From: a phage | Length of the DNA: 42,708 nucleotides | Sequence record: QB031384.1 | Strand: one strand, 5' to 3' | In this document: positions 3 to 42,708 of the stretch, piece by piece | Layout: each line of letters begins with the position of its first letter | Numbering within the stretch: position 1 is the stretch's first letter | Made by a program: the position numbers and the translations under genes | Notes under the pieces: generated by a model | What the model was told of the DNA's origin: nothing | Seen by the model: only the letters and a program-made list of their open reading frames with translations | The model's database searches: none

Positions 3-3000
3 TTACCCCTTATTATGTGCCAGCGATTTTACCTGCTCCTTTAGACGGGCAAGTTCTCTACGCTGGTACAGCATCTCAATGAAGAACATCTGATCAGGTC
101 GAATACCCCAACGACTACCTGCAGGAGTAACTACACTTACATTACCTTCCTCGTCATATTCCACCATCTCAGGGTACTCATCGTAGCACAGGAACCCGTA
201 CTTACATGAAGTAGCTTCAGGCTCCATAAGTCCGTTCGTAACGAGCACGTCACGTACCTGCTGTGCTATTACACCGAAGTGAGTACGAGCAGCATCCCCT
301 TTAGTAGCTAGACTGTCAAGCCACTTAAAGCTAATGATATGTACATCCTCCCAAGCATCTAACAGTGCCGATTCCACTTCCTCTGGAGCTGTTTTAAGAG
401 TACCGTCAGAAGTATTGATAGTGCCTGTAGCAGCGTACACCGTACTCCACCTATTAGATGCGCCTCCTAATGCTACAGAGGAGTCGTTATAAGGTAGCAG
501 GTTGTTTTGAGTGTAGACACCTCCCGTTGCGTACAGGACTGCCCTATTAGGCGTACTGTGATTAGATCCATAGAGTTGCACAATAGCGCCAGAGGCAGCG
601 GAGTTACCTGACCCTCCGCCCAGAATAAGCCGTTGCTGTGCTGGGTTATCAGTAGGCACTGACTTGTAAATCTGACCGTAATCCCCGTCCAGAAGTACTT
701 CAGACCGTACAGCAGGGATTCCGTTATGCCCAGTACCTGTAACACGCAAGGAGTTAACCTGTACGCTCTCATCAAAGACCATAGGCGCTGAAACATGACG
801 TAACCCATCTACCCCCATAGACACAGGTACAGTACGGTTAGGTGCTGCCCCGTATTTAAAGTCGCGAGACACATGCTGCTGCGGACCTACCTTAATACGG
901 TAGCTGTACAGGTCAGTAGGATGACCATCCTGCACGTACCAGCGCTTAGCAGAGTTACCTCCAATGGACCACGGGGATAAGAAATCCTCTCCGCCGAACA
1001 GATAGTACAGCCACCCATCCTTAACGCATACAGAACCTACCCCTACTGAGGAGTTAACTATGTTACCCTGATAAATCTGGTCGGTAACATTAAACCACTG
1101 CACCTCATCTAATGAGCTAGGCCAGTTACGGACGTTAACCTTGCACATAAAGGTGCGTGCGTAATTACCGTTGTAACGGTTATCAGGGGTATCCGCTTCC
1201 CACTCGTTTGCAGCCCGCTCACTCGAGAAGATATACAACTCGTCCCCCACCTTAGCAAAAGGTAGGTTACTGTTATGTACCTTGTTAGGGAAACGTAAGT
1301 ACTCCCAAGTCAAGCCTGAGTTAGTACTACGTGCCAAGGTAGAACCTGCGGAGGTGGCGGATGTTCCCCGAGTAGTAAGATACAACTCCCCGTCGTAATA
1401 GCGTATGCAAGGTTCGGAGGCATCGTTCGCGTACTCCTGAGACACTGTACGACGTTCAAATACTCCGGGATTGTTGTACACATCAGGGAAGTACAGGATA
1501 CCTAAACGTCTAGGAGAGACGTCACCGTTATGATAACCTACTGCAACTGCGTTACCTTCAAGGGCGGTAAAGCTATGGGTTTCAGTTACAGCTAAGTCAG
1601 CGTTAGTAGAGTATGCGATTCCCGGCAGTAAGGTCACTTCCCACTGGCAGTCCCAGAAACGTGTACCAAAGCTCCAAGTAACCCCGGCGTTGGTCAACGT
1701 TGAGGCAGCTGCGTTAGTTAAAGGTACTGTAATAGTATTAGCGTCAACTACGGTACGTACTACAGTATTACCTGAAACACCCGTAACCCCAGAGTTCGAG
1801 AAGTTAATAGTATCTCCTACCTTAAGCCCATGCATAGGAAGTACTACAGTAGCGAAGTTATCCCCAGCCACTGTGCTGATACCCCCAGTAGGCCTACGAG
1901 CATACGGCATTGGGCGCGACCACATCTCCGCCCGTACCATCCTAGCGTCAGATAGATTACGGGTCTCTACTAGCATGTACAAGCGGTTATTAGAAACACC
2001 CATGCTCATACAATGGTAGTTAACACCTGAGGCATAGTTAGGGTGGATAGGAGTAAGCCATTCTGGCATCGTCCACGTCTGACCATCGTCACCTGAACGT
2101 ACCCATGCTACATGCAGGTTCTGTACGCCATGCCGTTCACCTGCCATGAATGGTACGTATATTACATTATCATATACGAAAGACTTATCCTGAGTCCACG
2201 CATTGTAGAACGGGGTGTCTGTAATCTTAGTAAGACCTGCTTCGAAATAACCCTCCGATACATAAGTAAGAGGCTGACCCGCTAAGCGCTCATACTTAAA
2301 CGCGGCATTGCGGAAGCGGCTGAGGTCAGGTAAGGTAGTTACTTTAAAAGTTAAACCTTTACCGTCTATGTACTGATTATGGACCGCCGCTGCCAGCATG
2401 GCTTGAAGTGCTGCCGTATCATCCGTAACTGCATCACCTGCTACTCCCCATCCACGTACGTCAAAGGAATCTCTCCAATGAGGGCGGTAATACTCAGGAT
2501 TAACCTCAGGCCCGTCTATGCGAGTTAAGGCGTTACTCAGTGCAGCTAAACTCTCAGTAGTAGCATAACCTCCTTCCAGAACATCCTCACCTAGTCGCAT
2601 GAATACGTGAGTACCTGCGGGAACAGGGTCGGCTAGTATTACTGTATTGTCCCTAATGGTGTAACTGTACCCCGGAGTTTGACACACCCCGTTAATGTAC
2701 ACTGCTGCCTTTGTGAAGTTAAGGGCAATTCGGAACTCTTTAGTAGGTTCAGTAGTGTTGAAGTACATAGGGTAGCTGGAGGTAACACCGTTAAATGCAC
2801 CTTCGATGTTATCTACCCTGGTACTCACCTCATCCAGCTGTGACTTATTAACTGCATCCGTAGCGTCCTTACCTGCTGCCAGATTAATGATGCGGAAGCC
2901 GTTCATGTTGATAGTACCAAAGAAACCTTCGATACTGCGACCTTCTACCAGTTCCTGAGCTAAGTGCAGGAACTGGGTATTCTGAGTGTCTAAGTTCTCC

Positions 3001-3251
3001 TTAATAAAGGCAGCGCCTTCTGAGAACATGATGTAAAGAAACTCTTTAGCAGTGCGACGTACAATCAGTACAGTGCTCTCTGCATCGAGAGGCTTGTCAA
3101 AGCGGATGCGCGTATCACTGTCCCAAGTAAAATCAAATACCTCTTCACGGTTCACGTACAAGTAAATGTAGGAACGGTCGAGATAGTTGATCTCTACTGG
3201 GACAGTCTGTGCACCAGCTGGTAGAATTTGTTCTTGCCAGCTATAGGCCAT
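3..3251 (-). CDS. Tail fiber / tailspike: N-terminal T7 gp17-like adaptor, central Asp-box (BNR) beta-propeller glycosidase-like region, C-terminal intramolecular chaperone (peptidase S74-like)
   Basis: 1082-aa ORF. N-terminal region carries the tail-fiber motif FRIINLAAGKDATDAVNKSQLD. Central region has Asp-box-like motifs SGDDGQTWTM and STNSGLTWEY. C-terminus has TSDGTLK ... HFGVIAQQVRDVL, typical of autocleaving chaperone domains. Last gene of the structural module. Confidence 0.8.
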   Translation of the reverse strand: MAYSWQEQILPAGAQTVPVEINYLDRSYIYLYVNREEVFDFTWDSDTRIRFDKPLDAESTVLIVRRTAKEFLYIMFSEGAAFIKENLDTQNTQFLHLAQELVEGRSIEGFFGTINMNGFRIINLAAGKDATDAVNKSQLDEVSTRVDNIEGAFNGVTSSYPMYFNTTEPTKEFRIALNFTKAAVYINGVCQTPGYSYTIRDNTVILADPVPAGTHVFMRLGEDVLEGGYATTESLAALSNALTRIDGPEVNPEYYRPHWRDSFDVRGWGVAGDAVTDDTAALQAMLAAAVHNQYIDGKGLTFKVTTLPDLSRFRNAAFKYERLAGQPLTYVSEGYFEAGLTKITDTPFYNAWTQDKSFVYDNVIYVPFMAGERHGVQNLHVAWVRSGDDGQTWTMPEWLTPIHPNYASGVNYHCMSMGVSNNRLYMLVETRNLSDARMVRAEMWSRPMPYARRPTGGISTVAGDNFATVVLPMHGLKVGDTINFSNSGVTGVSGNTVVRTVVDANTITVPLTNAAASTLTNAGVTWSFGTRFWDCQWEVTLLPGIAYSTNADLAVTETHSFTALEGNAVAVGYHNGDVSPRRLGILYFPDVYNNPGVFERRTVSQEYANDASEPCIRYYDGELYLTTRGTSATSAGSTLARSTNSGLTWEYLRFPNKVHNSNLPFAKVGDELYIFSSERAANEWEADTPDNRYNGNYARTFMCKVNVRNWPSSLDEVQWFNVTDQIYQGNIVNSSVGVGSVCVKDGWLYYLFGGEDFLSPWSIGGNSAKRWYVQDGHPTDLYSYRIKVGPQQHVSRDFKYGAAPNRTVPVSMGVDGLRHVSAPMVFDESVQVNSLRVTGTGHNGIPAVRSEVLLDGDYGQIYKSVPTDNPAQQRLILGGGSGNSAASGAIVQLYGSNHSTPNRAVLYATGGVYTQNNLLPYNDSSVALGGASNRWSTVYAATGTINTSDGTLKTAPEEVESALLDAWEDVHIISFKWLDSLATKGDAARTHFGVIAQQVRDVLVTNGLMEPEATSCKYGFLCYDEYPEMVEYDEEGNVSVVTPAGSRWGIRPDQMFFIEMLYQRRELARLKEQVKSLAHNKG

Positions 3252-3253
3252 GT

Positions 3254-6200
3254 TTAATCTCCAAAGTTATTAATGATTGCACGGGTAGGCATGAACTCCT
3301 GCAAGAGCGGGAGACTACGGGACACGTCTTTAAGGTCTGCTTCTCCTGCTGCTACCTTCTGAATCAGTCCTAAGATGTTCATAGCATATCCAGTAGCGGT
3401 CAGGCTATGACGTGGGGACTGGTCGCTGAAGATATCAGTCACAAAGCTGAAGCCGCCTAGTATACTCATAGCTTTAACAGCTTCTGCGATAATCTTACCT
3501 TCTGATTCCTGCTTACCGTCAGCAGCGAAACGAGCTTGAGTAATAAGGTACATCAAAGGGAACTGATACGCAGCGAGATGGGCTAAGCCAATCCAGCCGT
3601 TATCACGGTATTCACGACGTAGAATCTTGTTAGTACCTGCTACAGCAAAGCTACCGTAACCAACTACTACGCGACCTACTGGACTGAACTGTGCAAAGTG
3701 AGAAGTCTCACCTACACGAATCTGCTGGATAACATGGTCCATTAGACGAGTACCAATAATCTCTAGCTGAAACTGTAAGTCATCTGGCAGTAAAGCATCA
3801 ACATCAGGACTAGCAGCAGCTTGCATACGCTTAGCAAGTTCAGGGTCAAGACCCCAACGCTGTAAACGCTTAGTAGCTTCTGCATCTCCGTTCAGCATGA
3901 GCTTAAGCTCATCCATTACGATACCTGCGTTAACGTTAGTCTGAAGACGATGCACCAGACCCATACCGTTTACGTGACGTGCAGCCTGACCGATGTTCTG
4001 AGTGATGTTAAACCAGCGGGAACTACGGGTAAGGTCTAAGTTATCATCAGCGTAAGAGTTCAACCAACGGAACCGAAGTTCCTTCTGAATGCTACCACGC
4101 AGGATAGAATCAAGACGAGCGGATTGACTAGCGTCTTTAGCGACAGCTGTAGCTTCCTTCCACCACTTTTCTTTCTTCATGCTGCGGAGTACTCGGGTCA
4201 TCCCGAACTCTTTCATAGCAAGCGCAGTATCTGCCAGCTGATACAAACCGGAGTTCTTAAGTACGGTGGCGTTGGCAAGGTTACCAGCAGCGCGGAATAT
4301 CTCCGGAACTTCTGAACCCTGAACAGGTGCGCCTACCATGAAGTCGATAGTATCATCTACATGCTTCTGATAACGGTCTGGGTCGCGTACTGTAGACTTA
4401 GCTGTGTTAATCATACCTTCCAGTGCATTCAAGTCAGTTACACCCGCGTATGCAAATGCTACACGACCTGATACACGGTTAGTATAACCTTGCATCTGCT
4501 TAGCTACGTCAGTATCCAGAATATCCGCCATACGCATAGCCTGGCCATTAACTATATACTCCTTCTGCAAGTCAAAGCGGTTACGAGTACGCAGGTTCTT
4601 AACCCGAGAAGTCTGAGTCGCTTCGCGTGCTACGTTAGTAGTAAGGAAGTTACGAATCTGGTCGTCTGCTACGCCTGCTGCACGCATTGCATCAACGATA
4701 ACTTCGTTGCCTACACCGCCCAGAATACTACGCCATGCCGGACCAGTCTGCTTAGACTTACCATCATAGATGCTTTCGAACATCTCACGAGCTACGCGAC
4801 CAGCAACCTCAGTTGTCATATCTGGGTAGATATCACGCAGGGCTTGACGGAACAGGTCGCGGTAGTCAGAAGCCTGACGCGCGCCAGTGTTAATCTGCTG
4901 ACGAATAGCATCGTAACTGTACGAGCGTGGGAAGTAGTAAGGACTACGCTTAATCTGAGAATCCACCTCAACCAGTCCAGACTTCTGGAGATGGTCATAC
5001 CATTTAGTAGCCCACTCAGAGTCTACATACGCCTTAACTAACGGGGCAATATCCTGAGGAGGGGTAGGAATCTCACGACCTGCTGTCTCCGCTGAGTATG
5101 CTTGGTCAAGGTATTGTGCAAGTTTAGACTCACGCTCACGACGAGCAGCTTTGAACTTGTTACGTTGCAAGAACGCATCCAGTAAACCAATACCATCTGC
5201 ACGCAGGGAATCAATAATGGCCTTCTCAACTACAGAGGCTGCACCATCAAGCTCTAACTGTAGGTTACGCTTATAGTCAGCTACAGAAGGACGACGTGCA
5301 CCTACTGCTGCGCCGTCAGCTACTAGCAGGTCTGCTAGGTCTTTAGAGCCTTCAGCAATGTTATCGTACAGGCTGAAGCTGCGAGCGAACGCCTTCTTAA
5401 AGCTATCTAACTGCTTAACTGCACCGTTAGCCGTATCGGCGAACTCACCATACTCAGATAATGCCTGAGACTTATAACGGGTAACACCACGCTCTTTAGC
5501 AGCTACATCCAGAAGCGCATCATAGGAATCAAGCACAGAGTTCAAGGCATTACCTTCTACCTTAGCACCTAATGCTTTAAGGATAGTTTGAGCAATACGA
5601 CGAATAGCACTAGCACCTTCTACTTCAGTATTACGCAGTAGCTTAACCAGACCTTTATCATCTGCAAGACCTGCAAGTAACTCTTCGTTACTGCTCAGGC
5701 TGTAGCGCATACGCGCATCAAGATTAGGACTAGTAAGAAGCTGCTCACGAATACGAGTAAGGTTAGTGGTAGCTTCCAATGCTTCTGGAGTACCAGACTG
5801 AATAGCGCGTACAGTAGCAGCATGTATAAGCTCATGCACAGCAATTTTAGCAGTATTAGAATCCAGGCCATTGATAGCATCTCCGTAGGTCTTCCAAGTA
5901 CGTGGGCCTTTCTTAGAGGCACGCAGGGTGACCGCATTGTTAACTAGGTTATAACGGCTAGAGATGTTAGTGTCACCTACGAGGTGTACAGGCACATCAT
6001 CTATGATACCGTCCAGTGAACGCAGCAATGCCTTCTGACCCTCATCCAGTACATCGCGTGCTAACAGGTTCTTAGTAACGTCACTTGCGCGTACACTTAC
6101 ACGAGCCTGCTGACCTTTCAGGATACGAATAGGTTTCTTAAGCGGGGTAGATTCTAAGGAATCAATCTTAGTAGTAAAGGCATCCGAGTCTGGAGCTGTA

Positions 6201-7024
6201 CGCTTAGTAGGAGCAGCTTCATCGAACTGCATTTCTGTACGAGTACTGCCACGAGTAGTACCAGTACTTGCATCTACAGCGTTACTAGCTGTGGTATCTG
6301 CTGCATCTTCCGTTGCACCTGCAACAGTACGCTGAACAGCACGGCTTGCATTAACTGCTTTGCGGATATCGAATAACTGGTCTACGCCTGATACTGCAGC
6401 TACTAATGCAGTGATACCTTCGGACTGTCCCAGCTGGTCCTGCGCATAGTACGCTGAACCTACGTCTGCTGCACGGATAGCTGAACGAACTGCTAAGCCT
6501 GCGCGACCTGCTACACCTGCGGCTGCAAACGGAGCTAACAGGGTAGGGGCGTCACCTAGAATAGAACCAGCGATACCAGACACGATGTTAGCGCTAGCAG
6601 TAGTATCACGCTCGCGCTGCTCCAGCATCTGTTCAATGCGGTAGTTATAATCATCCAAACTAACCGAAGTGCGTAAGTAATCAATTTCTTCCTGATTAGG
6701 GGTGTAAATTCTAGTCCGTGCATCTTTCTGGAGCATCTCCGTAGAGTTGAAGTCCAGGTCAGTTGGGAAGTCTGGAGAGAAAGCTTTGCGTAGACCTGCT
6801 GCGATAATACTGTTACCTGCACCAGCTATAAAGGACTGACCTGCAGTGATAGCAGCAGTACGAGCCTGGGCAGTATTAGATGCACGCTCAAGAGCGGAAG
6901 CACCTAAGTCTGTTGCATCACCCCAATTAACTGTAGCCTGAGGTTGTTGCACTTCAATGAGAGTATCTTGTTTAGCAGAATCCTTTATACCGGGACTAGC
7001 ATCTTGATTCAGGAACTGAGCCAT
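3254..7024 (-). CDS. Internal virion protein D-like (large ejection/core protein, T7 gp16 analogue)
   Basis: 1256-aa ORF between the gp15-like gene and the tail fiber. Size and position match T7/phiKMV synteny. No catalytic motif recognised by eye. Confidence 0.6.
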   Translation of the reverse strand: MAQFLNQDASPGIKDSAKQDTLIEVQQPQATVNWGDATDLGASALERASNTAQARTAAITAGQSFIAGAGNSIIAAGLRKAFSPDFPTDLDFNSTEMLQKDARTRIYTPNQEEIDYLRTSVSLDDYNYRIEQMLEQRERDTTASANIVSGIAGSILGDAPTLLAPFAAAGVAGRAGLAVRSAIRAADVGSAYYAQDQLGQSEGITALVAAVSGVDQLFDIRKAVNASRAVQRTVAGATEDAADTTASNAVDASTGTTRGSTRTEMQFDEAAPTKRTAPDSDAFTTKIDSLESTPLKKPIRILKGQQARVSVRASDVTKNLLARDVLDEGQKALLRSLDGIIDDVPVHLVGDTNISSRYNLVNNAVTLRASKKGPRTWKTYGDAINGLDSNTAKIAVHELIHAATVRAIQSGTPEALEATTNLTRIREQLLTSPNLDARMRYSLSSNEELLAGLADDKGLVKLLRNTEVEGASAIRRIAQTILKALGAKVEGNALNSVLDSYDALLDVAAKERGVTRYKSQALSEYGEFADTANGAVKQLDSFKKAFARSFSLYDNIAEGSKDLADLLVADGAAVGARRPSVADYKRNLQLELDGAASVVEKAIIDSLRADGIGLLDAFLQRNKFKAARRERESKLAQYLDQAYSAETAGREIPTPPQDIAPLVKAYVDSEWATKWYDHLQKSGLVEVDSQIKRSPYYFPRSYSYDAIRQQINTGARQASDYRDLFRQALRDIYPDMTTEVAGRVAREMFESIYDGKSKQTGPAWRSILGGVGNEVIVDAMRAAGVADDQIRNFLTTNVAREATQTSRVKNLRTRNRFDLQKEYIVNGQAMRMADILDTDVAKQMQGYTNRVSGRVAFAYAGVTDLNALEGMINTAKSTVRDPDRYQKHVDDTIDFMVGAPVQGSEVPEIFRAAGNLANATVLKNSGLYQLADTALAMKEFGMTRVLRSMKKEKWWKEATAVAKDASQSARLDSILRGSIQKELRFRWLNSYADDNLDLTRSSRWFNITQNIGQAARHVNGMGLVHRLQTNVNAGIVMDELKLMLNGDAEATKRLQRWGLDPELAKRMQAAASPDVDALLPDDLQFQLEIIGTRLMDHVIQQIRVGETSHFAQFSPVGRVVVGYGSFAVAGTNKILRREYRDNGWIGLAHLAAYQFPLMYLITQARFAADGKQESEGKIIAEAVKAMSILGGFSFVTDIFSDQSPRHSLTATGYAMNILGLIQKVAAGEADLKDVSRSLPLLQEFMPTRAIINNFGD

Positions 7025-7154: not shown

Positions 7155-9851
7155 TTACTGACCAAGACGGACAGCTTGAACCGCTTGCCAATACTGAATC
7201 TCCAGGTACTGTTTACGCTTAGGTTGGGCTTGCTTATAAGCAGGCTGTTTCTTAAGTGTATCCAGCCCTACTAAAGACTGCGCTTGGAACGGGTCCTGCT
7301 GGTAGCCGTATGTCGCAGAGGAGCCTTGACCTTGTACTGATTTCAAGGTACGAAGAGCATCTGCTACAGGGGCGGAACTGCCGTTACCACCGTGATAGTT
7401 CAAGTCTACCAGAAGCTTCAGCCCAGAAGGGTCCTGAGTAATACCTTGCAGCTGTTTCTTAACCGCAGGGATGTACTGCTTCTCGAGAGAACCTTTCAAT
7501 ACCTCAATACCTTGTTCAGGAGTCAGGGATTCAGGAACTGGTAAGCCAGAGTTATCATGCAGACCAAAGCCTACGCTACCTTTCTTCTTAGTAGCACGGA
7601 AGCCTTCGAACTGAGCAGTAGTAGCTACGATGTCTGAGAAGAGGGCAGGTTGAATCCCAACACTGTTCTTGCCATTAACGTTCAGACTAATAGTACGTCC
7701 ATTATCAGCATCCCAGAATGTAGCAGGGCGAGAACCTACAGCCTTCTGACCAATCTCAATACCACCAGCTAGTGCTTCATCGTACCCAGCCTGAGCTAGC
7801 TGCTGAACCTGCTGCACGTCGATACTTACGTTCTGGTAGATACCGTCAGTAGTAAGGACAGAAGCAGTTAAGTTTTGACCCTGCGCACCAGCAGTACCTG
7901 CCTGCACGATTACACGGGAAACTTTAGAAGGGTCAGCTATGGCATCAACACTAGTTTGAATCTGCTGAGCAAGTGCAGTACGGAACTGTTCGGCATCCCC
8001 ACGATAAGAACCTTGAAGGTCTGCGAGTGTAGTACCAGCGGGAAGATAAACGTGACGCGGCTTACCTGATACTTCAACCTGCAACTGACGGGACTGGATA
8101 CGTCCCTTAAGAAGCGTGTTGATATCCTCCGGGGACTTACCTACCAGAAGTTCAGGGTTGCTACGGTACAACTGTTTATACTCTTCCTGTAATGCTACAC
8201 GTCCCTCCTGACGCTGCTGGTCCGCAGTATCACCAAAGCTAAACCAGTTAGCAGTAGACTCAGCATCAATAGCTGCTTCCGGAGGATTAGCTGGGAGGTT
8301 ATCATAGCGTCCGCTTGCACGGTTACGGGCTAAACGACGGATATCATCCAGAATGATATTACTAGCGTTAGACTGGCCCTGAGCAGCAGCACGTTGAATA
8401 ATACCACGGTACTCTTCAGGTACGTCACCGCTCAGTGCAATCTTATCTAAGTCACCGCCAGAGATGTACTGCTGTACCCAACCTGCGATAGCTGCGTTGT
8501 TCTCTGCACTAACTGTACCGTCCTCTGCGAGAGAGTCCAGCGAGGCTAAGGTGTTAGCCATTAAGCGTGAAGTACGCTGGTTAGCCTTCTGGATAAGTCC
8601 TGCATCTTTAGAGGTCTTACCGTACTGTAGAAGCGTAGCATTACCTACCGGAGTATCCGGGAACTGGTCCAAGATGAATTTCTGCGCTTTCTCTACATCC
8701 CCCTCGAACTGACCGGCAAGTACAGACGTAGGCTGACGATTATTAATCGCTATCTGCAACGCATACTTATCAGCTGCATCATCACGAAGCTTAGTAGCAC
8801 TGTTCCAGATATCAAGCTGAGTACCTGTGCTTAATACACCACTGCGCCCATACTGCTGTACTTGGGAGCGGATATTCTGTAAAGCTACTTCCTGCTGTTC
8901 CGGGGATGCACTACGGAGAGCTTCAAGCTGGTCAGCAATATCAAAGCGGACCTGTGCTTCCATCCGGGAGCCTGCACGCTTAAACTCAGTACGCAGTGCC
9001 TTAACGACATCTACAGAGTTAACACCGAGCTGCTCAGTTGCAATACGTTGAATACGGTCAATGACCAGAGGGTCAGTGGCATTCTGTGCAATAGATACAA
9101 GATAGTCCTGTACACGTGCAAACTTACTACTTTTATCGAGGTGCCCCGCACCTAGAATGGCACTCATACCAGATACTACAGCAGCGTCACCGGCAGGGAT
9201 ATTCCCGCTTTGGATATGGTTAAAGAACTCCTGACCGGAGGCACTTAAGTTCTGGTCTAATGCAGCATCTGCTCGCTGATTAGCAACTTTAGCGCGTCCC
9301 TCTTGGAAGGCGGCATAGTTAGCTGCGCTAGCTTGCTGCACCTGTGTAAGAGTAGCCGCAGCAGCCTGGCGGTCCAGCTGAGGTAGCCACTTGGATACTT
9401 GCTCAGAGAACTTAGCATTACCCTGTTGCTCTTGTAAACGAAACTCCTCATCAGACAAGCCTTGCGCTGCTGCGGAGTTAGCACGCTGAAGAGCGCCTAT
9501 ACGCCAGTCAGCAAGCTCACGACTTACTGCTGCGGAGGTGTAGCCTTGTGTATAAGAATCACGAAGGAATATGTTCTGCTGCTTAACCTTCTCATCTCTA
9601 GTAGCTTCTAAGTCGACAGCACCTTGAGCATCAAGCGCACCCTGTACAGCTGCCTTAGCGCCGTATACCTGGGCACGCTCAGAGAATCCTTCTACTGTTC
9701 CTTGAAGGAACTGACCAATAGCCTGACGCCTAGCTAATGCTGAGTCATCTACTGCTACTGCACCTACCGCCCCCTGTACTGCCTCAGTAGCCTGAAGCTG
9801 AACACCTTGAAGCTGCAAGCCTTGACGTTGTACACTTTGAGTAATAGGCAC
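7155..9851 (-). CDS. Internal virion protein C-like (T7 gp15 analogue)
   Basis: 898-aa ORF, Ala/Gln-rich and predicted helical, placed between gp14-like and gp16-like genes. Call is by synteny. Confidence 0.6.
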   Translation of the reverse strand: MPITQSVQRQGLQLQGVQLQATEAVQGAVGAVAVDDSALARRQAIGQFLQGTVEGFSERAQVYGAKAAVQGALDAQGAVDLEATRDEKVKQQNIFLRDSYTQGYTSAAVSRELADWRIGALQRANSAAAQGLSDEEFRLQEQQGNAKFSEQVSKWLPQLDRQAAAATLTQVQQASAANYAAFQEGRAKVANQRADAALDQNLSASGQEFFNHIQSGNIPAGDAAVVSGMSAILGAGHLDKSSKFARVQDYLVSIAQNATDPLVIDRIQRIATEQLGVNSVDVVKALRTEFKRAGSRMEAQVRFDIADQLEALRSASPEQQEVALQNIRSQVQQYGRSGVLSTGTQLDIWNSATKLRDDAADKYALQIAINNRQPTSVLAGQFEGDVEKAQKFILDQFPDTPVGNATLLQYGKTSKDAGLIQKANQRTSRLMANTLASLDSLAEDGTVSAENNAAIAGWVQQYISGGDLDKIALSGDVPEEYRGIIQRAAAQGQSNASNIILDDIRRLARNRASGRYDNLPANPPEAAIDAESTANWFSFGDTADQQRQEGRVALQEEYKQLYRSNPELLVGKSPEDINTLLKGRIQSRQLQVEVSGKPRHVYLPAGTTLADLQGSYRGDAEQFRTALAQQIQTSVDAIADPSKVSRVIVQAGTAGAQGQNLTASVLTTDGIYQNVSIDVQQVQQLAQAGYDEALAGGIEIGQKAVGSRPATFWDADNGRTISLNVNGKNSVGIQPALFSDIVATTAQFEGFRATKKKGSVGFGLHDNSGLPVPESLTPEQGIEVLKGSLEKQYIPAVKKQLQGITQDPSGLKLLVDLNYHGGNGSSAPVADALRTLKSVQGQGSSATYGYQQDPFQAQSLVGLDTLKKQPAYKQAQPKRKQYLEIQYWQAVQAVRLGQ

Positions 9852-27650: not shown

Positions 27651-28838
27651 TTAAATTACCTCTTCCTCTTTAAAGGATTTACCAATACCACATTCGGCGG
27701 GAAACTTAACTTCAGACAGTATGCCAAAGTTAGGCCACAACTGTAGCATCCTATCACGGGCTCCTTCCATAACGTTTTTGATGAGCTTACCCGCCTTACG
27801 GGCCGTCTCTTCGTCAGCACAATCTATGTACAAACAGTCATGGACGGTAACCAGCAAACACCATTTACCCCCCATCCAATTGTCAGCTATACCAGCCCTC
27901 ATAGCCATTCCGGTTGCAATAAGCATAAGCAGGGAACCTGATCCTTGAAACGGATAGTTAGCCATCTCTGTGGGCTTAAAGTCCATTACCTGCTTACCTT
28001 CGCGCCACACCGGCTTCTGACGGAAGCGGTAGCGAGTACCGCAAGGCGTAGTGAAGTAGCCCTCGCGATAGATACGCCAGCTGCCGTCATCTGCTTGTTC
28101 ACGGCGTATAGGCTCCAGCAGCGCAGTACGGTTTACTTCAGCTGCAATGACATCCCTGTACTTAATAGACTCAGGGAATAGTGCCTCCTCGTTAGCTAAG
28201 AACTTCTCAGCGTCGGCTAAGCTAGCACCTGAGGCGAACGCCAGTCCTTTAGCGGATGCTCCATATTGTGCTGCGAAGCTGAAGGTTTTGATGGCTGTTC
28301 GCTTCTTCTTCCATCCTTTATGGTCCGGTGCATCCGGGTTATGGCAAAGCTCGTAGACTTCTTCATAAGGCATACCTTCTTGGAATGCTAGACGATAGCA
28401 GTGCATATCCGTACCGGCTTCAAGCAAGCTCAGTAATTTCTTATCACCAGTGATTACACAGCCCATTACAACCTCCATAGCTGAGTAGTCACACTGTGCA
28501 ATCATACCCTGCTCACCATAGCGGCTACGCAGAATCTGCTTAACCTTAGACTCACGCGGCAGCTGCTGCATGTTCGGGTTAGATGTTGACAGGCGTCCGG
28601 TAGTAGTTGAGCAGTGATTCGACCTGTGGTGAATGATGCCAGAACCATCTGCTGATGTAGGGATGACGTACGGCAGCATGCCCGTCACCTTACGCAGACT
28701 GCCATCCTTATTAGTCTCACGTACTTCATAGAAGCCGAGGTCCTTCTGGCGTGTAGTCATTTCTTTGTATGCTTTGAAGAAGTCTGAAGCTAACTTAGCC
28801 ATCTTGTTCCATCCCAATAAAATAATGTGCAAGGTCAT
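27651..28838 (-). CDS. DNA polymerase, family A: polymerase (fingers/palm) part
   Basis: 395-aa ORF with TGRLSTSNPNMQQLP, motif A-like CDYSAMEV, motif B-like RTAIKTFSFAAQYG and motif C VHD. Overlaps the upstream exonuclease-domain ORF by 44 nt in a different frame. Confidence 0.85.
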   Translation of the reverse strand: MTLHIILLGWNKMAKLASDFFKAYKEMTTRQKDLGFYEVRETNKDGSLRKVTGMLPYVIPTSADGSGIIHHRSNHCSTTTGRLSTSNPNMQQLPRESKVKQILRSRYGEQGMIAQCDYSAMEVVMGCVITGDKKLLSLLEAGTDMHCYRLAFQEGMPYEEVYELCHNPDAPDHKGWKKKRTAIKTFSFAAQYGASAKGLAFASGASLADAEKFLANEEALFPESIKYRDVIAAEVNRTALLEPIRREQADDGSWRIYREGYFTTPCGTRYRFRQKPVWREGKQVMDFKPTEMANYPFQGSGSLLMLIATGMAMRAGIADNWMGGKWCLLVTVHDCLYIDCADEETARKAGKLIKNVMEGARDRMLQLWPNFGILSEVKFPAECGIGKSFKEEEVI

Positions 28839-29940
28839 TCATTGCGTCCGTTCCTGTGCTGTACACAGGGCTACCATCCGCTAATGTTTGAGCACCTTTG
28901 TATTCACCGCGGTCTCCGTACTTCTCACGTAGAGACTGAGGTAGGTCCTGAATATTAACCAGCCCGTCGAAGCGGTACAGGCGTTCACCCCACTTCATAG
29001 CTTGCTCGTCAGTGTCTACTTTTATGAACTTAGGCATACCCTTATTACGCCCAGACTTATACACCCCGTCCTGTACTTCCTTCTTAATGTATTTAGGTGG
29101 GTCATAAGGAACCTTGCACTTGTACTTAACCATGCCACCATACACTAAAGCGGACATATGATAACCGCTATTCCAGTTAAACTCGAAGCCCTCTGGCAAT
29201 TCTGGCAAGAATGTCTGAAGTAACTCCCGCAGATTCCGAATAGCGTCCTCCTGCTCCTTCTGGTTTACGCGTGCTGTAGGCATATCAACGTACACGCCAT
29301 TGAACTCACAGTATGCCAGAGCTGCGACTGCCTCCATCCTTTCCCAGACCATAGGCATCTGTCCACGTTCCGCAAATACTGCGCATTGCCCGTAGAAGCA
29401 CAGCGCTGTGTTGACTATGTCACCGTTAGGCCCTGTTAAGTATTCATGTAGTAGCATAGGGTCAATGTCTGCTGTCAGAACCCCTTGCTGCCATAGTAGC
29501 TTAACGCCGTCGACTTTGTGTGACCCGCCATACTTAGGGGCAGTCTCATCTAGTGACGGGTAAAGATTCTGGAAGTCGCTGGCAATGTACTCGCCCTGCA
29601 TAGTATCAAAGACTCGACCTCCTCGTCTAAGGAACGACTCGAACTGCTCACGGGCAAAGGTCAGCGCCCAGCTAATCTCGTACGCTGCGTTGTGCGCTAC
29701 GATTAACCACGTATCATCCTGAATAGGTAGCCACTGCTTAGGGTCAGCTGCTAAGAAATCAGTTCGGGATTCATAGCGTACACTCTGCACCTCGCTGCAC
29801 TGTACAGTCCCATCCGGCATAGTCCTATCAATGCGGAAGCCTGATTCTACGATGTAGTTATCAGGGCAGTACGGAGTTGCGACCCCGCCGTAGTACGGAT
29901 GATTTTGAGTTTCAATATCCCAAATTAGAATGCTACTCAT
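28795..29940 (-). CDS. DNA polymerase, family A: N-terminal 3'-5' exonuclease part (separate frame from the polymerase part)
   Basis: Exo I motif WDIET near the N-terminus. The ORF track starts it at a TTG (29946); the ATG at 29940 overlaps the upstream small ORF's stop as ATGA. Ends 44 nt inside the polymerase-domain ORF. Confidence 0.8.
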   Translation of the reverse strand: MSSILIWDIETQNHPYYGGVATPYCPDNYIVESGFRIDRTMPDGTVQCSEVQSVRYESRTDFLAADPKQWLPIQDDTWLIVAHNAAYEISWALTFAREQFESFLRRGGRVFDTMQGEYIASDFQNLYPSLDETAPKYGGSHKVDGVKLLWQQGVLTADIDPMLLHEYLTGPNGDIVNTALCFYGQCAVFAERGQMPMVWERMEAVAALAYCEFNGVYVDMPTARVNQKEQEDAIRNLRELLQTFLPELPEGFEFNWNSGYHMSALVYGGMVKYKCKVPYDPPKYIKKEVQDGVYKSGRNKGMPKFIKVDTDEQAMKWGERLYRFDGLVNIQDLPQSLREKYGDRGEYKGAQTLADGSPVYSTGTDAMNDLAHYFIGMEQDG

Positions 29941-30089
29941 TTCCAATTACTCCGACGTGATTTATTAATGGCTGCCCGTACAATCATCTCGCTACTGTCC
30001 AGCGTGTAGCGCCTAACCTGCTTACGATTGTTAGCAATTGCTCTGATGACTTCGTAGTCTGCCTCAGTAATATCACTTTGCTTTAGCAT
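29937..30089 (-). CDS. Small basic ORF (50 aa), not in ORF track
   Basis: ATG at 30089-30087 preceded by GGTGAGGTG; stop overlaps the DNA polymerase ATG. Translation MLKQSDITEADYEVIRAIANNRKQVRRYTLDSSEMIVRAAINKSRRSNWK. Confidence 0.35.
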   Translation of the reverse strand: MLKQSDITEADYEVIRAIANNRKQVRRYTLDSSEMIVRAAINKSRRSNWK

Positions 30090-37354: not shown

Positions 37355-37391
37355 GTATAATAAATTCAAGGTGCTTGTTTACACGAGCACC
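37355..37391 (-). terminator. Putative rho-independent terminator after the last gene (tailspike)
   Basis: On the minus strand: stem GGUGCU/AGCACC (37370-37375 paired with 37386-37391), 10-nt loop, then UUGAAUUUAUUAU. Stem is short and the U-tract is interrupted. Confidence 0.4.
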
Positions 37392-37416
37392 CTGATGCTT
37401 CTCAGGTACATCCCCT

Positions 37417-39162
37417 TTAGTTATTGCGTCCTGTAAGAAGTACTGCATGATCATACGTGTGCTGCACCCCATCCAGCTGCATGCACAGACCTATTAACTG
37501 ACCGTTACTGCTGCCGGAATAACTAGCAGGAGCATCAAACTGACCTGAGATACCGCGTCTATCCAGGGCATCTGCACGAGCAACCCAACTGTAGTTACCT
37601 GGAGCAGCACTACGCTGTACGCCCGACCCAGCGGGTAAAGTAAAGCTAAGCTGTTTAGGGAAGCTACAGCGTAAGTTCAGAGGAGGTGCACCGCCATCTT
37701 CGAAGAACAATGCATTCCCTGAGCTGGTAGCCCAGTTAGAAGGGAATACTTCTACAGTACAGTCGCTGAAGCTCGTGCCAGGACGAAAGTACATGAAGCT
37801 GTAAAGTTCTGAGCTAGGGTGGCGCATCCTGATACTGATGTTGCAGCGGGTCATGCTTGAGATACGTTGTGTTTCAAACAAGTTCAGTCCGGTACGAGTA
37901 CCAGTATTAGTATCGCCGATGATGTTACTTGCATCCCAATTGAAGCGTTCTACCTGAACAGTACGGGGAGACGGTAACTCCGAGACCATAGCTTGTTTAA
38001 CATCGAAGAAGTTATCCTGGAACACTATGCCCTGAATACTACCGTTCATAGTAATGGCTGCGCTCAGGCTACGGCTGCGGTCTACAATGAAGCTACAACC
38101 ACGTACAGTAACATCATTAATGAGATACTGGCTTGAGTCGGAGTTAGAGTCCTGAAAGAAGTCTACGAAGCTGCACATACCCGGGTGGTTACCTGAAGTG
38201 AACCGACAATTCTCTACAGTAAAGCCGTTAATATGCGTAGTAGCTACTGCATCTGGACCTGCTGCAAAGATAACAACCTGACCTGATACGTCCCCAGTTA
38301 CCCCGGACATAACAGAGTTGTAAAGGTACGTACCAGCACCCTCTGACTCTGCGCCGTGCAGTGCTACATAGCAGCCGCGGGTATATCCTGAAATGAAAGA
38401 ATCGCGATAGTACGTATTATGCTGGTGCAGTTCTACAGTAGCAGCAATTACACGTGCACGGGCAGAATTAGCCCGGAATGTACAGCCTGTGACACCACTA
38501 AATGGTGCGTTTACATATACAGTACTGTGGTCACGGTTTACATCGCTCTGAATCAGGTTAAGGAACCGGCAGTTACGTACATGCGTATCTGAGCCGTACC
38601 CGTTCCAGCCAATAGTAACGCCCCATGTAACGTCCCCGTTCTGGAAGGTAATGCCATCTACGCTACAGTTATACCCGCGTCCGAATGCGATACCATTGCG
38701 GAGATGCCCGGCGTTAGCGAAGTCGTAACCGCCAAAGTCAATAGTACCCTCGCCATAAATATGGCAGTTATCAAGGTTGCCCGAGTTAGCTGGGTTACCA
38801 TCAGTAAAGCCTACGAAGACTTGGAAGGAACTATTAGCTAAAGCAGGGCCTACTTTAATAGTACCGTCCAGTTTAATACTTACATTGCTTTTAAGCTGGA
38901 TAAGACCGCTATGCCCTGAAACTGGGCCAGTGCTAATGCTGTTCAGCGTCCATGTACCTTCCGGGATAACTAGTAAACCGCCACCTACTGACTCTATGTA
39001 ATCAATAGCTGCCTGCATACCTTCTCGGGCATCAGCTACGTCGGGAGTAATCCACTGGCGCAGGTTATACCCATTATCATTGAGGTAGGTGCTAAGCTGT
39101 AAACCTGAATGGTCTACATGCAGCGTATCCAGTTCGACTTCAACTAACTTTACTAAGGTCAT
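37417..39162 (-). CDS. Tailspike / polysaccharide depolymerase with right-handed beta-helix (pectate-lyase-like), no N-terminal particle-anchor domain
   Basis: 581-aa ORF with N-terminal REGMQAAIDYIESVGGGLLVIPEGTWTLNS, then Gly/Asn/Thr-rich repeats typical of parallel beta-helices. No gp17-like adaptor region. Last gene before the putative genome end. Confidence 0.7.
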   Translation of the reverse strand: MTLVKLVEVELDTLHVDHSGLQLSTYLNDNGYNLRQWITPDVADAREGMQAAIDYIESVGGGLLVIPEGTWTLNSISTGPVSGHSGLIQLKSNVSIKLDGTIKVGPALANSSFQVFVGFTDGNPANSGNLDNCHIYGEGTIDFGGYDFANAGHLRNGIAFGRGYNCSVDGITFQNGDVTWGVTIGWNGYGSDTHVRNCRFLNLIQSDVNRDHSTVYVNAPFSGVTGCTFRANSARARVIAATVELHQHNTYYRDSFISGYTRGCYVALHGAESEGAGTYLYNSVMSGVTGDVSGQVVIFAAGPDAVATTHINGFTVENCRFTSGNHPGMCSFVDFFQDSNSDSSQYLINDVTVRGCSFIVDRSRSLSAAITMNGSIQGIVFQDNFFDVKQAMVSELPSPRTVQVERFNWDASNIIGDTNTGTRTGLNLFETQRISSMTRCNISIRMRHPSSELYSFMYFRPGTSFSDCTVEVFPSNWATSSGNALFFEDGGAPPLNLRCSFPKQLSFTLPAGSGVQRSAAPGNYSWVARADALDRRGISGQFDAPASYSGSSNGQLIGLCMQLDGVQHTYDHAVLLTGRNN

Positions 39163-42408: not shown

Positions 42409-42708
42409 TTATAAGATTCCAGCTAATGGGTCATCAGGGTCTGCACCAGCTTTCGCCAGTAGCCCCTGCGCCCGTGCCTTACGTTTCTCTGCTAACTCAT
42501 CTTGGAACTCATCACGTAGCTCCTGCATCTCCGTAGAGTCTGCATCTGCTGTAACGTCGTTGTCCTTAAGGAATTTAGCGATTACTGATTTGTCAGCAGC
42601 AGGCATAGGAAGCTCTTCATCCTGAGCCTGCTTTAATTCTGAGATGAGTACCTCGGTGAACATCTTGTGAAGTTCAGCGAGGCGACTCTTTGTAGCCGCC
42701 TTAGCCAT
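42409..42708 (-). CDS. Terminase small subunit-like protein (T7 gp18 analogue)
   Basis: 99-aa acidic, helical ORF immediately upstream of the large subunit. Its ATG is the last 3 nt of the window, so its SD would lie across the window junction. Confidence 0.55.
   Translation of the reverse strand: MAKAATKSRLAELHKMFTEVLISELKQAQDEELPMPAADKSVIAKFLKDNDVTADADSTEMQELRDEFQDELAEKRKARAQGLLAKAGADPDDPLAGIL

Follow-up and report, generated by a model that had tools for sequence, protein, structure and literature searches.

We describe here a tailspike gene from the phage genome QB031384.1, a stretch of 42,708 nucleotides referred to below as the window, in which the minus strand of positions 3-3251 encodes a protein that we call receptor-binding protein 1 (RBP1). 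From domain homology, conserved residues and gene context, on which our assignments of its enzymatic activity, processing and K1 specificity rest, RBP1 is very probably the primary receptor-binding protein (RBP) of an Escherichia coli podophage of the Slopekvirinae (PAS7/Cepavirus-like) and a homotrimeric endo-alpha-2,8-sialidase tailspike that works by the mechanism proposed below. The window holds an entire podophage genome in circularly permuted form: across its ends, the RBP1 stop codon (3-5) is separated from the terS start (42706-42708) by a spacer of 2 nt (1-2), exactly as in Escherichia phage vB_EcoP_P64441 (PQ847473.1; Autographivirales, Slopekvirinae). This published phage of uropathogenic E. 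coli (UPEC; Li et al. 2025, Virology 609:110570) is 97-99% identical to the window at the nucleotide level. The next relative, PAS7, proposed as the type of the genus Cepavirus, shows ~80% nucleotide identity.

Positions 3-3251 form one uninterrupted minus-strand open reading frame (ORF) of 1082 AA, with an ATG at 3249-3251 and a TAA at 3-5. The ATG is preceded by a GGAG 8 nt on its 5′ side and lies 2 nt beyond the stop of a gene for a 1256-AA gp16-like protein. RBP1 occupies the gp17 position, flanked by this gp16-like internal virion protein and by terS. A preliminary description of the window had placed a tail fiber gene at 3-3251 without naming a strand; the gene and the motifs quoted for it are present, but on the minus strand. 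These motifs are TSDGTLK (AA 947-953, nt 393-413), FGVIAQQVRDV (AA 992-1002, nt 246-278) and the Asp-box, of which a strict copy, SGDDGQTW, was found at AA 386-393 (nt 2073-2096) and a degenerate one, STNSGLTW, at AA 642-649 (nt 1305-1328). The chance expectation for a strict Asp-box is 6e-4 per protein of RBP1 composition, and one was seen in 12 of 20000 shuffles. Translation of the plus strand over the same interval is broken by dozens of stops, and plus-strand genes were rejected there, as only unsupported ORFs of 50-109 AA are available.

Pfam searches, in which all domain matches given here scored well over their curated cut-offs, recovered all three modules previously proposed for the protein, namely a gp17-type adaptor, a propeller and a C-terminal chaperone. 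The adaptor was matched by Phage_T7_tail (PF03906; AA 14-140, E 5e-12, 46.2 bits against a cut-off of 25.2), the propeller by End_beta_propel with 653.8 bits (cut-off 24) and the chaperone by Peptidase_S74 (AA 948-1004, E 9e-12, 45.6 bits, cut-off 22). End_beta_barrel (98.2 bits) and End_tail_spike (202 bits) were found as well, and the whole catalytic module, comprising the N-terminal extension, the propeller with its nested barrel and the stalk, extends over AA 271-947. Comparison with solved structures gave the same picture. The phi92 endosialidase (PDB 4HIZ) matched AA 270-947 with E=0, and the K1F enzyme endoNF (1V0E, 3GVL) matched the same region with E about 1e-240; the stalk aligns end to end with 4HIZ to the last residue of the latter (...TGTINT). 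The K1F chaperone structure 3GW6 matched AA 847-1077 with E 6e-66 (3GUD, E 3e-17), and chain G of 8ES4, which is Gp44 in the tail reconstruction of Shigella phage HRP29, matched AA 1-239 with E 3e-85.

The structure of full-length RBP1 was predicted as an AlphaFold2 monomer, with a mean predicted local distance difference test (pLDDT) value of 65.5. Confidence is high in the part that forms the propeller and barrel (AA 270-680, pLDDT 70-94; 90-94 in the barrel). A Foldseek search of the PDB ranked phi92 4HIZ and K1F 1V0E on top (E 5e-80 to 1e-69, template modelling (TM) scores on the target of 0.71-0.72, 69% and 52% identity, respectively), followed by the chaperones 3GW6 and 3GUD (TM on the target 0.79 for 3GUD), the HRP29 tail and many six-bladed propellers of GH33 exosialidases. 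From the confident model region and the endosialidase ranking we therefore conclude that the propeller sought in the predicted structure is present. The propeller was supported by Pfam, PDB matches and Foldseek, and of its expected Asp-boxes only one is canonical. Two other enzyme types were considered and rejected. A generic GH33/BNR sialidase is not indicated, as Pfam BNR_2 scores 16.5 bits, below its cut-off of 31.4 and far below End_beta_propel, and GH33 structures are just distant Foldseek matches (8-13% identity). The hint of a pectate-lyase-type depolymerase came from PF12708 (E 0.035), a match that falls short of the cut-off and is restricted to the 25 residues of the GDxxTDDT motif.

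In a deep mutational scan, H350, R549, E581, R596 and R647 were reported as key K1F residues intolerant of substitution (PMC12632334), and Glu581/Arg596/Arg647 make up the K1F active-site triad (PMC2955717). Our alignment places identical residues at these positions in RBP1 (H374, R581, E613, R628 and R679), and the motifs DASEPCI, TRGT and SERA around the active site are the same in both proteins. Identity to active enzymes is 52-70% over the whole catalytic module. The closest solved catalytic domain is that of phi92 endoN92, with 69-70% identity overall and 80% in the first propeller segment; by catalytic subdomain, the values range from 60% to 80% for phi92 and from 47% to 63% for K1F. Because the five K1F catalytic residues are conserved and the cleavage site described below matches that of endoN92, RBP1 is, as far as its sequence tells, a bona fide GH58 endo-N-acetylneuraminidase, and its predicted substrate is almost certainly polysialic acid. 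The preliminary view of a 'sialidase-like' glycan-degrading RBP was therefore correct in kind but too cautious, as both residues and profiles point to the endosialidase family. Its further suggestion, that the specificity could be mined, proved unnecessary because RBP1 belongs to the well-characterised polysialic-acid endosialidases and GenBank already has an annotated, near-identical copy of it.

The C-terminal block, recognized earlier as a chaperone, shows in addition to the 3GW6 match the residues expected for autocleavage. Self-cleavage of endosialidases is driven by a Ser/Lys dyad (PMC3742443), and the K1F dyad S911/K916 corresponds to S948/K953 in RBP1. The predicted cut separates Thr947 from Ser948, whose codon occupies nt 408-410, with Lys953 as the putative general base. 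The surrounding sequence, GTINT/SDGTLKT with the slash marking the cut, is that of the phi92 endoN92 site, at which GenBank gives a mat_peptide boundary (T756/S757). For K1F, and by transfer for T5 pb1, a mechanism has been put forward that invokes a neighbouring-subunit Arg and an Asp upstream of the Thr-Ser (PMC4690869). In RBP1, R934 and D923 are found 14 and 25 residues upstream of Ser948, with the spacing seen in K1F and T5 pb1, and both are conserved in K1F, phi92 and the metagenomic relative L006. Cleavage is predicted to yield a mature chain with Thr947 as its last residue, together with a C-terminal domain of 135 residues.

At its other end, RBP1 carries in AA 1-245 more than a bare gp17 N-terminus, namely a region homologous to the HRP29 gp44 tailspike adapter in full, from the anchor through the coiled coil to the knob. 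Identity to HRP29 gp44 is 64% over AA 1-140 and 49% over AA 141-245, and the respective values for PAS7 gp17 are 77% and 53%. RBP1 aligns with these two proteins up to 'RLGEDV' (~AA 222), while from ~AA 224-238 on the alignment is with endosialidases (K1H, K1G, phi92 and K1F) and no longer with gp44 or PAS7. The neck-and-linker motif common to RBP1 and these endosialidases ends with (R/K)WxDxxDxRGWG-GDGxTDDT. Judged from these alignments, RBP1 is an endosialidase cassette transplanted onto a lineage-specific anchor, which is a familiar pattern. Among 5.8 billion proteins, the combination of a gp44-type N-terminus and an endosialidase was found in only two clusters, P0001 (99% identical) and P0002 (74%); K1F-type fusions and many anchor-less endosialidases are in the same database too. 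The knob is positioned where the RBP1 of phage KP34 has a T4gp10-like fragment (AA 186-242). In HRP29, gp44 is termed a tailspike adapter and forms a tail protein complex with the gp52 tailspike. A comparable contact is seen in Ar-KM, a phiKMV-like phage, where gp45, the next fibre protein, is held through its N-terminal helix by the knob of gp44.

The window encodes also a second tailspike, RBP2, in an ORF directly after that of the endolysin. RBP2 matches the HK620 tailspike in the PDB with E 3e-129, and the catalytic Asp and Glu of HK620 (D339 and E372 in literature numbering) correspond to its D211 and E244. The spikes of K1ind1-3, phages with O18:K1:H7 hosts, share 78% identity with RBP2, and EP75 TSP1, a protein active on the E. 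coli O18A strain DSM10809 (O18A:K1), shares 72%. No anchor domain was found in RBP2 by Pfam. Its N-terminus, MTLVKLV, matches with one substitution the KP34virus docking heptapeptide MALxxLV; RBP2 proteins of relatives start with MTLVANI, MALVENI or MSLVSLV. In KP34virus group B, a large RBP1 (anchor, the T4gp10-like fragment, enzyme) is combined with a second RBP whose gene follows those for lysis and whose N-terminus is MALxxLV (Latka et al.), and docking of this peptide on the branching domain was validated by phage engineering in Klebsiella phages. The pairing of RBP1 with a post-endolysin RBP2 is seen in the window, in P64441 and in the metagenomic L006. In P64441 and its metagenomic near-twin L007 the RBP2 has 520 AA and starts with MTLVANI, and in L006 it has 532 AA and starts with MALVENI.

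Comparison of the window with P64441 showed that their nucleotide identity ends 11 nt into RBP2, past the MTLV codons, and returns 33 nt beyond the RBP2 stop. Because identity stops and resumes so sharply around RBP2, positions 37385-39151 of the window (against locus L001 9324-10959 of PQ847473.1) represent a cleanly exchanged cassette. The P64441 RBP2 is an unrelated, pectate-lyase-like spike, for which a tblastn search gave no indication of specificity, only 24-28% identical pectate-lyase-like proteins from Vibrio, Aeromonas and other non-E. coli phages.

Two observations on related spikes were made at the same time. The annotation of the K1ind1-3 spikes (GU196279-GU196281), 'tailspike 63D sialidase', does not fit these proteins, which are beta-helix spikes of HK620 type and not endosialidases; the label is probably a mis-annotation carried from K1-dependent relatives. 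PAS7 has an extra 366-AA collagen-repeat 'putative tail fiber' (Collagen + CBM_5_12; locus L004 2497-3597) between its lysis genes that starts with MSLINQ, and no counterpart of such size was seen among the lysis-region ORFs of the window.

The gp44-type knob on RBP1 and the docking heptapeptide on RBP2 suggest that the phage probably carries a branched pair of K1-capsule and O18-antigen depolymerases in which RBP2 would be docked on RBP1. Extending this to the lineage of the window, P64441 and L006, we cautiously favour an E. coli anchor-branch system with two RBPs: a K1 endosialidase would serve as the hub, an O-antigen spike would be plugged into it by a seven-residue peptide and swapped just after the MTLV codons, and the resulting action, first on the capsule and then on the lipopolysaccharide, would be tuned to O:K1 serotypes (here O18A:K1).

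Several observations pull against this picture of RBP1. The knob is C-terminal in HRP29 gp44, with a tail of ~20 residues behind it, whereas in RBP1 another 850 residues come after it. The classical anchored endosialidase, that of K1F, moreover belongs to a mono-RBP system, and docking is deduced from homology alone. It is thus conceivable, if rather unlikely, that RBP1 is the sole spike on this anchor and that the HK620-type protein is mounted elsewhere or soluble, with no branched complex being formed. Such an arrangement accords poorly with the conservation of the knob (49-57% identity to relatives that have a second spike), with the docking peptide of RBP2 and its single substitution, with the lack of an anchor domain in the latter and with the RBP1-RBP2 pairing being kept in three independent lineages.

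As to the polymer cleaved, endoN92, the closest solved enzyme, is annotated in GenBank as cleaving the K92 polymer too, so that RBP1 may not be strictly K1-specific. The natural substrate might then be other than plain K1 polymer, either K92 (alternating alpha-2,8/alpha-2,9) or both K1 and K92 as for endoN92. We regard this as improbable, since the partner tailspike comes from a clade found in phages of O18:K1:H7 hosts, its EP75 homologue is active on an O18A:K1 strain, the nearest phage P64441 infects UPEC, and K1 is common to all other close matches (K1G, K1H and JSSK01). In RBP1, Asp435 stands at the position of K1F Lys410, a residue reported to be essential in vitro but found dispensable during infection in the deep mutational scan (PMC12632334). 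The second Asp-box, in which Asn replaces the Asp, is degenerate. These two features would fit a catalytically inactive, lectin-like fibre that merely binds polysialic acid, which is highly improbable given the five key catalytic residues and three active-site motifs shared with K1F and the level of identity to active enzymes across the whole catalytic module.

The remaining points concern the model and the chaperone. Confidence is low in the coiled coil (AA 68-158) and in the stalk (AA 790-955, with stalk pLDDT <50), as expected because these are obligate trimers modelled here as a monomer. The C-terminal domain, with its 135 AA, is shorter than those of K1F (154) and phi92 (162) and is without ~19-29 residues of the beta-hairpin 'tentacle' (AA about 1012-1030, window about 90-200); the same deletion is present in L006.

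On the reading of RBP1 as an active endosialidase hub, the gp17/HRP29-gp44-type anchor (AA 1-140) and the coiled coil would fix six trimers to the tail at the interface of head-to-tail adapter and nozzle. The propeller would cleave the polysialic-acid K1 capsule through Glu613, Arg628 and Arg679, together with His374 and Arg581, with extra polymer-binding sites presumably supplied by the beta-barrel and stalk, and this cleavage would allow the virion to tunnel through the capsule. The C-terminal 135 residues would serve as an intramolecular chaperone by nucleating the trimerisation and the folding of the stalk, and would then remove themselves by the Ser948/Lys953-mediated cut of the Thr947-Ser948 bond, leaving a mature spike of 947 residues. 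The knob (AA about 160-225) probably docks the MTLVKLV peptide of RBP2, whose gene follows those for lysis, and such docking would equip the particle with capsule and O-antigen depolymerases suited to O18:K1 strains.

Among known systems, the closest counterpart is XXQ42890.1 of P64441, annotated as endo-N-acetylneuraminidase, which is also 1082 AA long, occupies the same gene position and is 98.4% identical to RBP1 in amino acid and 98.8% in nucleotide sequence. The two phages differ in RBP2, which is a 520-AA pectate-lyase-like protein in P64441 and a 581-AA protein of HK620 type in the window. K1F endoNF (gp17; 1V0E, 3GVL, 3GW6), the standard example of a fusion between a T7-type anchor and an endosialidase, has the same plan of anchor, propeller/barrel/stalk and autocleaved chaperone, and its catalytic residues and Ser/Lys dyad are identical to those of RBP1. 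Identity is 47-63% in the catalytic and chaperone domains but ~23% in the N-terminal 245 residues, and the cleavage site has Ser-Asn in K1F and Ser-Asp in RBP1. K1F belongs to the Studiervirinae and is without a second spike, unlike the window phage. The endoN92 of the myophage phi92 (4HIZ), which shares the cleavage site with RBP1, has instead a short unrelated N-terminus for the myovirus baseplate, the longer chaperone noted above and documented activity on K1 and K92.

The N-terminal part of RBP1 has its counterparts in gp44 of HRP29 (Shigella phage Buco; PDB 8ES4) and in PAS7 gp17, with homologous anchor, coiled coil and knob, the same gene position and a second spike after the endolysin. 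Unlike RBP1, HRP29 gp44 (260 AA) ends after the knob and bears no enzyme, and PAS7 gp17 (402 AA) has a small Gp53-like C-terminal domain in place of the endosialidase. The Klebsiella podophages of KP34virus group B and KP32 (Latka et al. 2019, 2026) resemble the window in both spikes: their RBP1 consists of anchor, branching fragment and depolymerase (plus an autocleaved chaperone in KP32), and their RBP2, encoded after the lysis genes, has the short N-terminal docking peptide MALxxLV; the knob in the window's RBP1 would be the counterpart of the branching fragment. Their enzymes are beta-helix depolymerases against Klebsiella capsules, whereas the window encodes a propeller endosialidase and a predicted E. 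coli O-antigen endoglycosidase. Coliphage K1-5 is likewise a podophage that combines an endosialidase with a second polysaccharide-degrading spike, a K5 lyase. In K1-5, however, both spikes hang on a separate adapter, gp37, by 7- and 11-residue peptides, while RBP1 itself bears the anchor and the presumed docking knob.

Some further observations on the window were made in passing. The 1256-AA gp16-like protein (3254-7024, minus strand) and the 898-AA internal virion protein (7155-9851, minus strand) gave no Pfam match at E<=0.1; counterparts of the former in P64441 and PAS7 are annotated as 'peptidoglycan lytic exotransglycosylase'. Positions 27651-28838 and 28795-29946 (minus strand) hold two adjoining, slightly overlapping ORFs of 395 and 383 AA, where P64441 and PAS7 have two coding sequences (CDSs) annotated as 'DNA-directed DNA polymerase', those of PAS7 directly downstream of an HNH endonuclease gene; the pair may be a split polymerase gene. 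A transfer RNA scan of the window found none. The unannotated records 'Listeria phage LM 4-14-1 / 4-11-1' and 'Salmonella phage S.Kent 1-2-1' show 80-85% nucleotide identity to large parts of the window, and their host labels may be doubtful or the records may be contaminant contigs.

Table. Location of RBP1, its segments and RBP2 in the window, with the basis of each assignment
Feature	Position	Strand	Basis
Complete endosialidase tailspike gene (RBP1)	3..3251	-	ORF list; identity to PQ847473.1 CDS; start/stop context
T7 gp17-type N-terminal anchor, AA 1-140	2832..3251	-	Pfam Phage_T7_tail AA 14-140; HRP29 gp44 / PAS7 gp17 identity; 8ES4_G
Adapter coiled-coil stalk, AA 120-159	2775..2894	-	Pfam YadA_stalk E 1e-10; helix AA 136-156 in model
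Adapter beta-rich knob, AA 160-225, putative docking (branching) site	2577..2774	-	Alignment to HRP29 gp44 / PAS7 gp17 knobs
Neck helix and linker, AA 226-270, start of endosialidase cassette	2442..2576	-	Alignment to K1H, K1F, phi92 endosialidases
Endosialidase N-terminal extension, AA 271-336	2244..2441	-	Pfam End_N_terminal E 2e-29
Six-bladed catalytic beta-propeller, AA 339-788	888..2237	-	Pfam End_beta_propel E 8e-197; residue mapping; Foldseek
Beta-barrel nested in propeller (predicted lectin-like, polysialic acid-binding), AA 449-531	1659..1907	-	Pfam End_beta_barrel E 3e-28
Stalk of mature spike, AA 791-947, ends at Thr947	411..881	-	Pfam End_tail_spike E 7e-60; 4HIZ alignment
C-terminal intramolecular chaperone, AA 948-1082	6..410	-	Pfam Peptidase_S74 AA 948-1004; 3GW6; cleavage-site identity
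Second tailspike RBP2, 581 AA, HK620/O18A-type endoglycosidase (predicted)	37417..39162	-	PDB HK620 match; K1ind1-3 / EP75 identity

RBP1 is of a fully known kind, and the protein itself is already in GenBank as a near-identical copy; it is not new because the K1F-type architecture has long been described and an annotated homologue with 98.4% identity exists. The endosialidase tailspikes that combine a gp17-type anchor with an autocleaved chaperone rank with the most thoroughly studied phage depolymerases, and endosialidases are used for the detection and removal of polysialic acid and in anti-K1 therapy. To this set RBP1 adds the sequence of one more predicted depolymerase for the K1 capsule, which shares 52% identity with K1F endoNF and about 70% with phi92 endoN92. 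The sole aspect that we would call mildly novel is its context, namely an E. coli Slopekvirinae lineage in which an endosialidase appears to fill the RBP1 role of an anchor-branch system and to be paired with an O-antigen RBP2 that can be swapped. A K1 endosialidase hub combined with a swappable O-antigen spike would offer a ready natural scaffold, modestly more useful than RBP1 itself, and such hub-plus-spike pairing fits the engineering rules for branching domains and docking peptides recently validated in Klebsiella phages.

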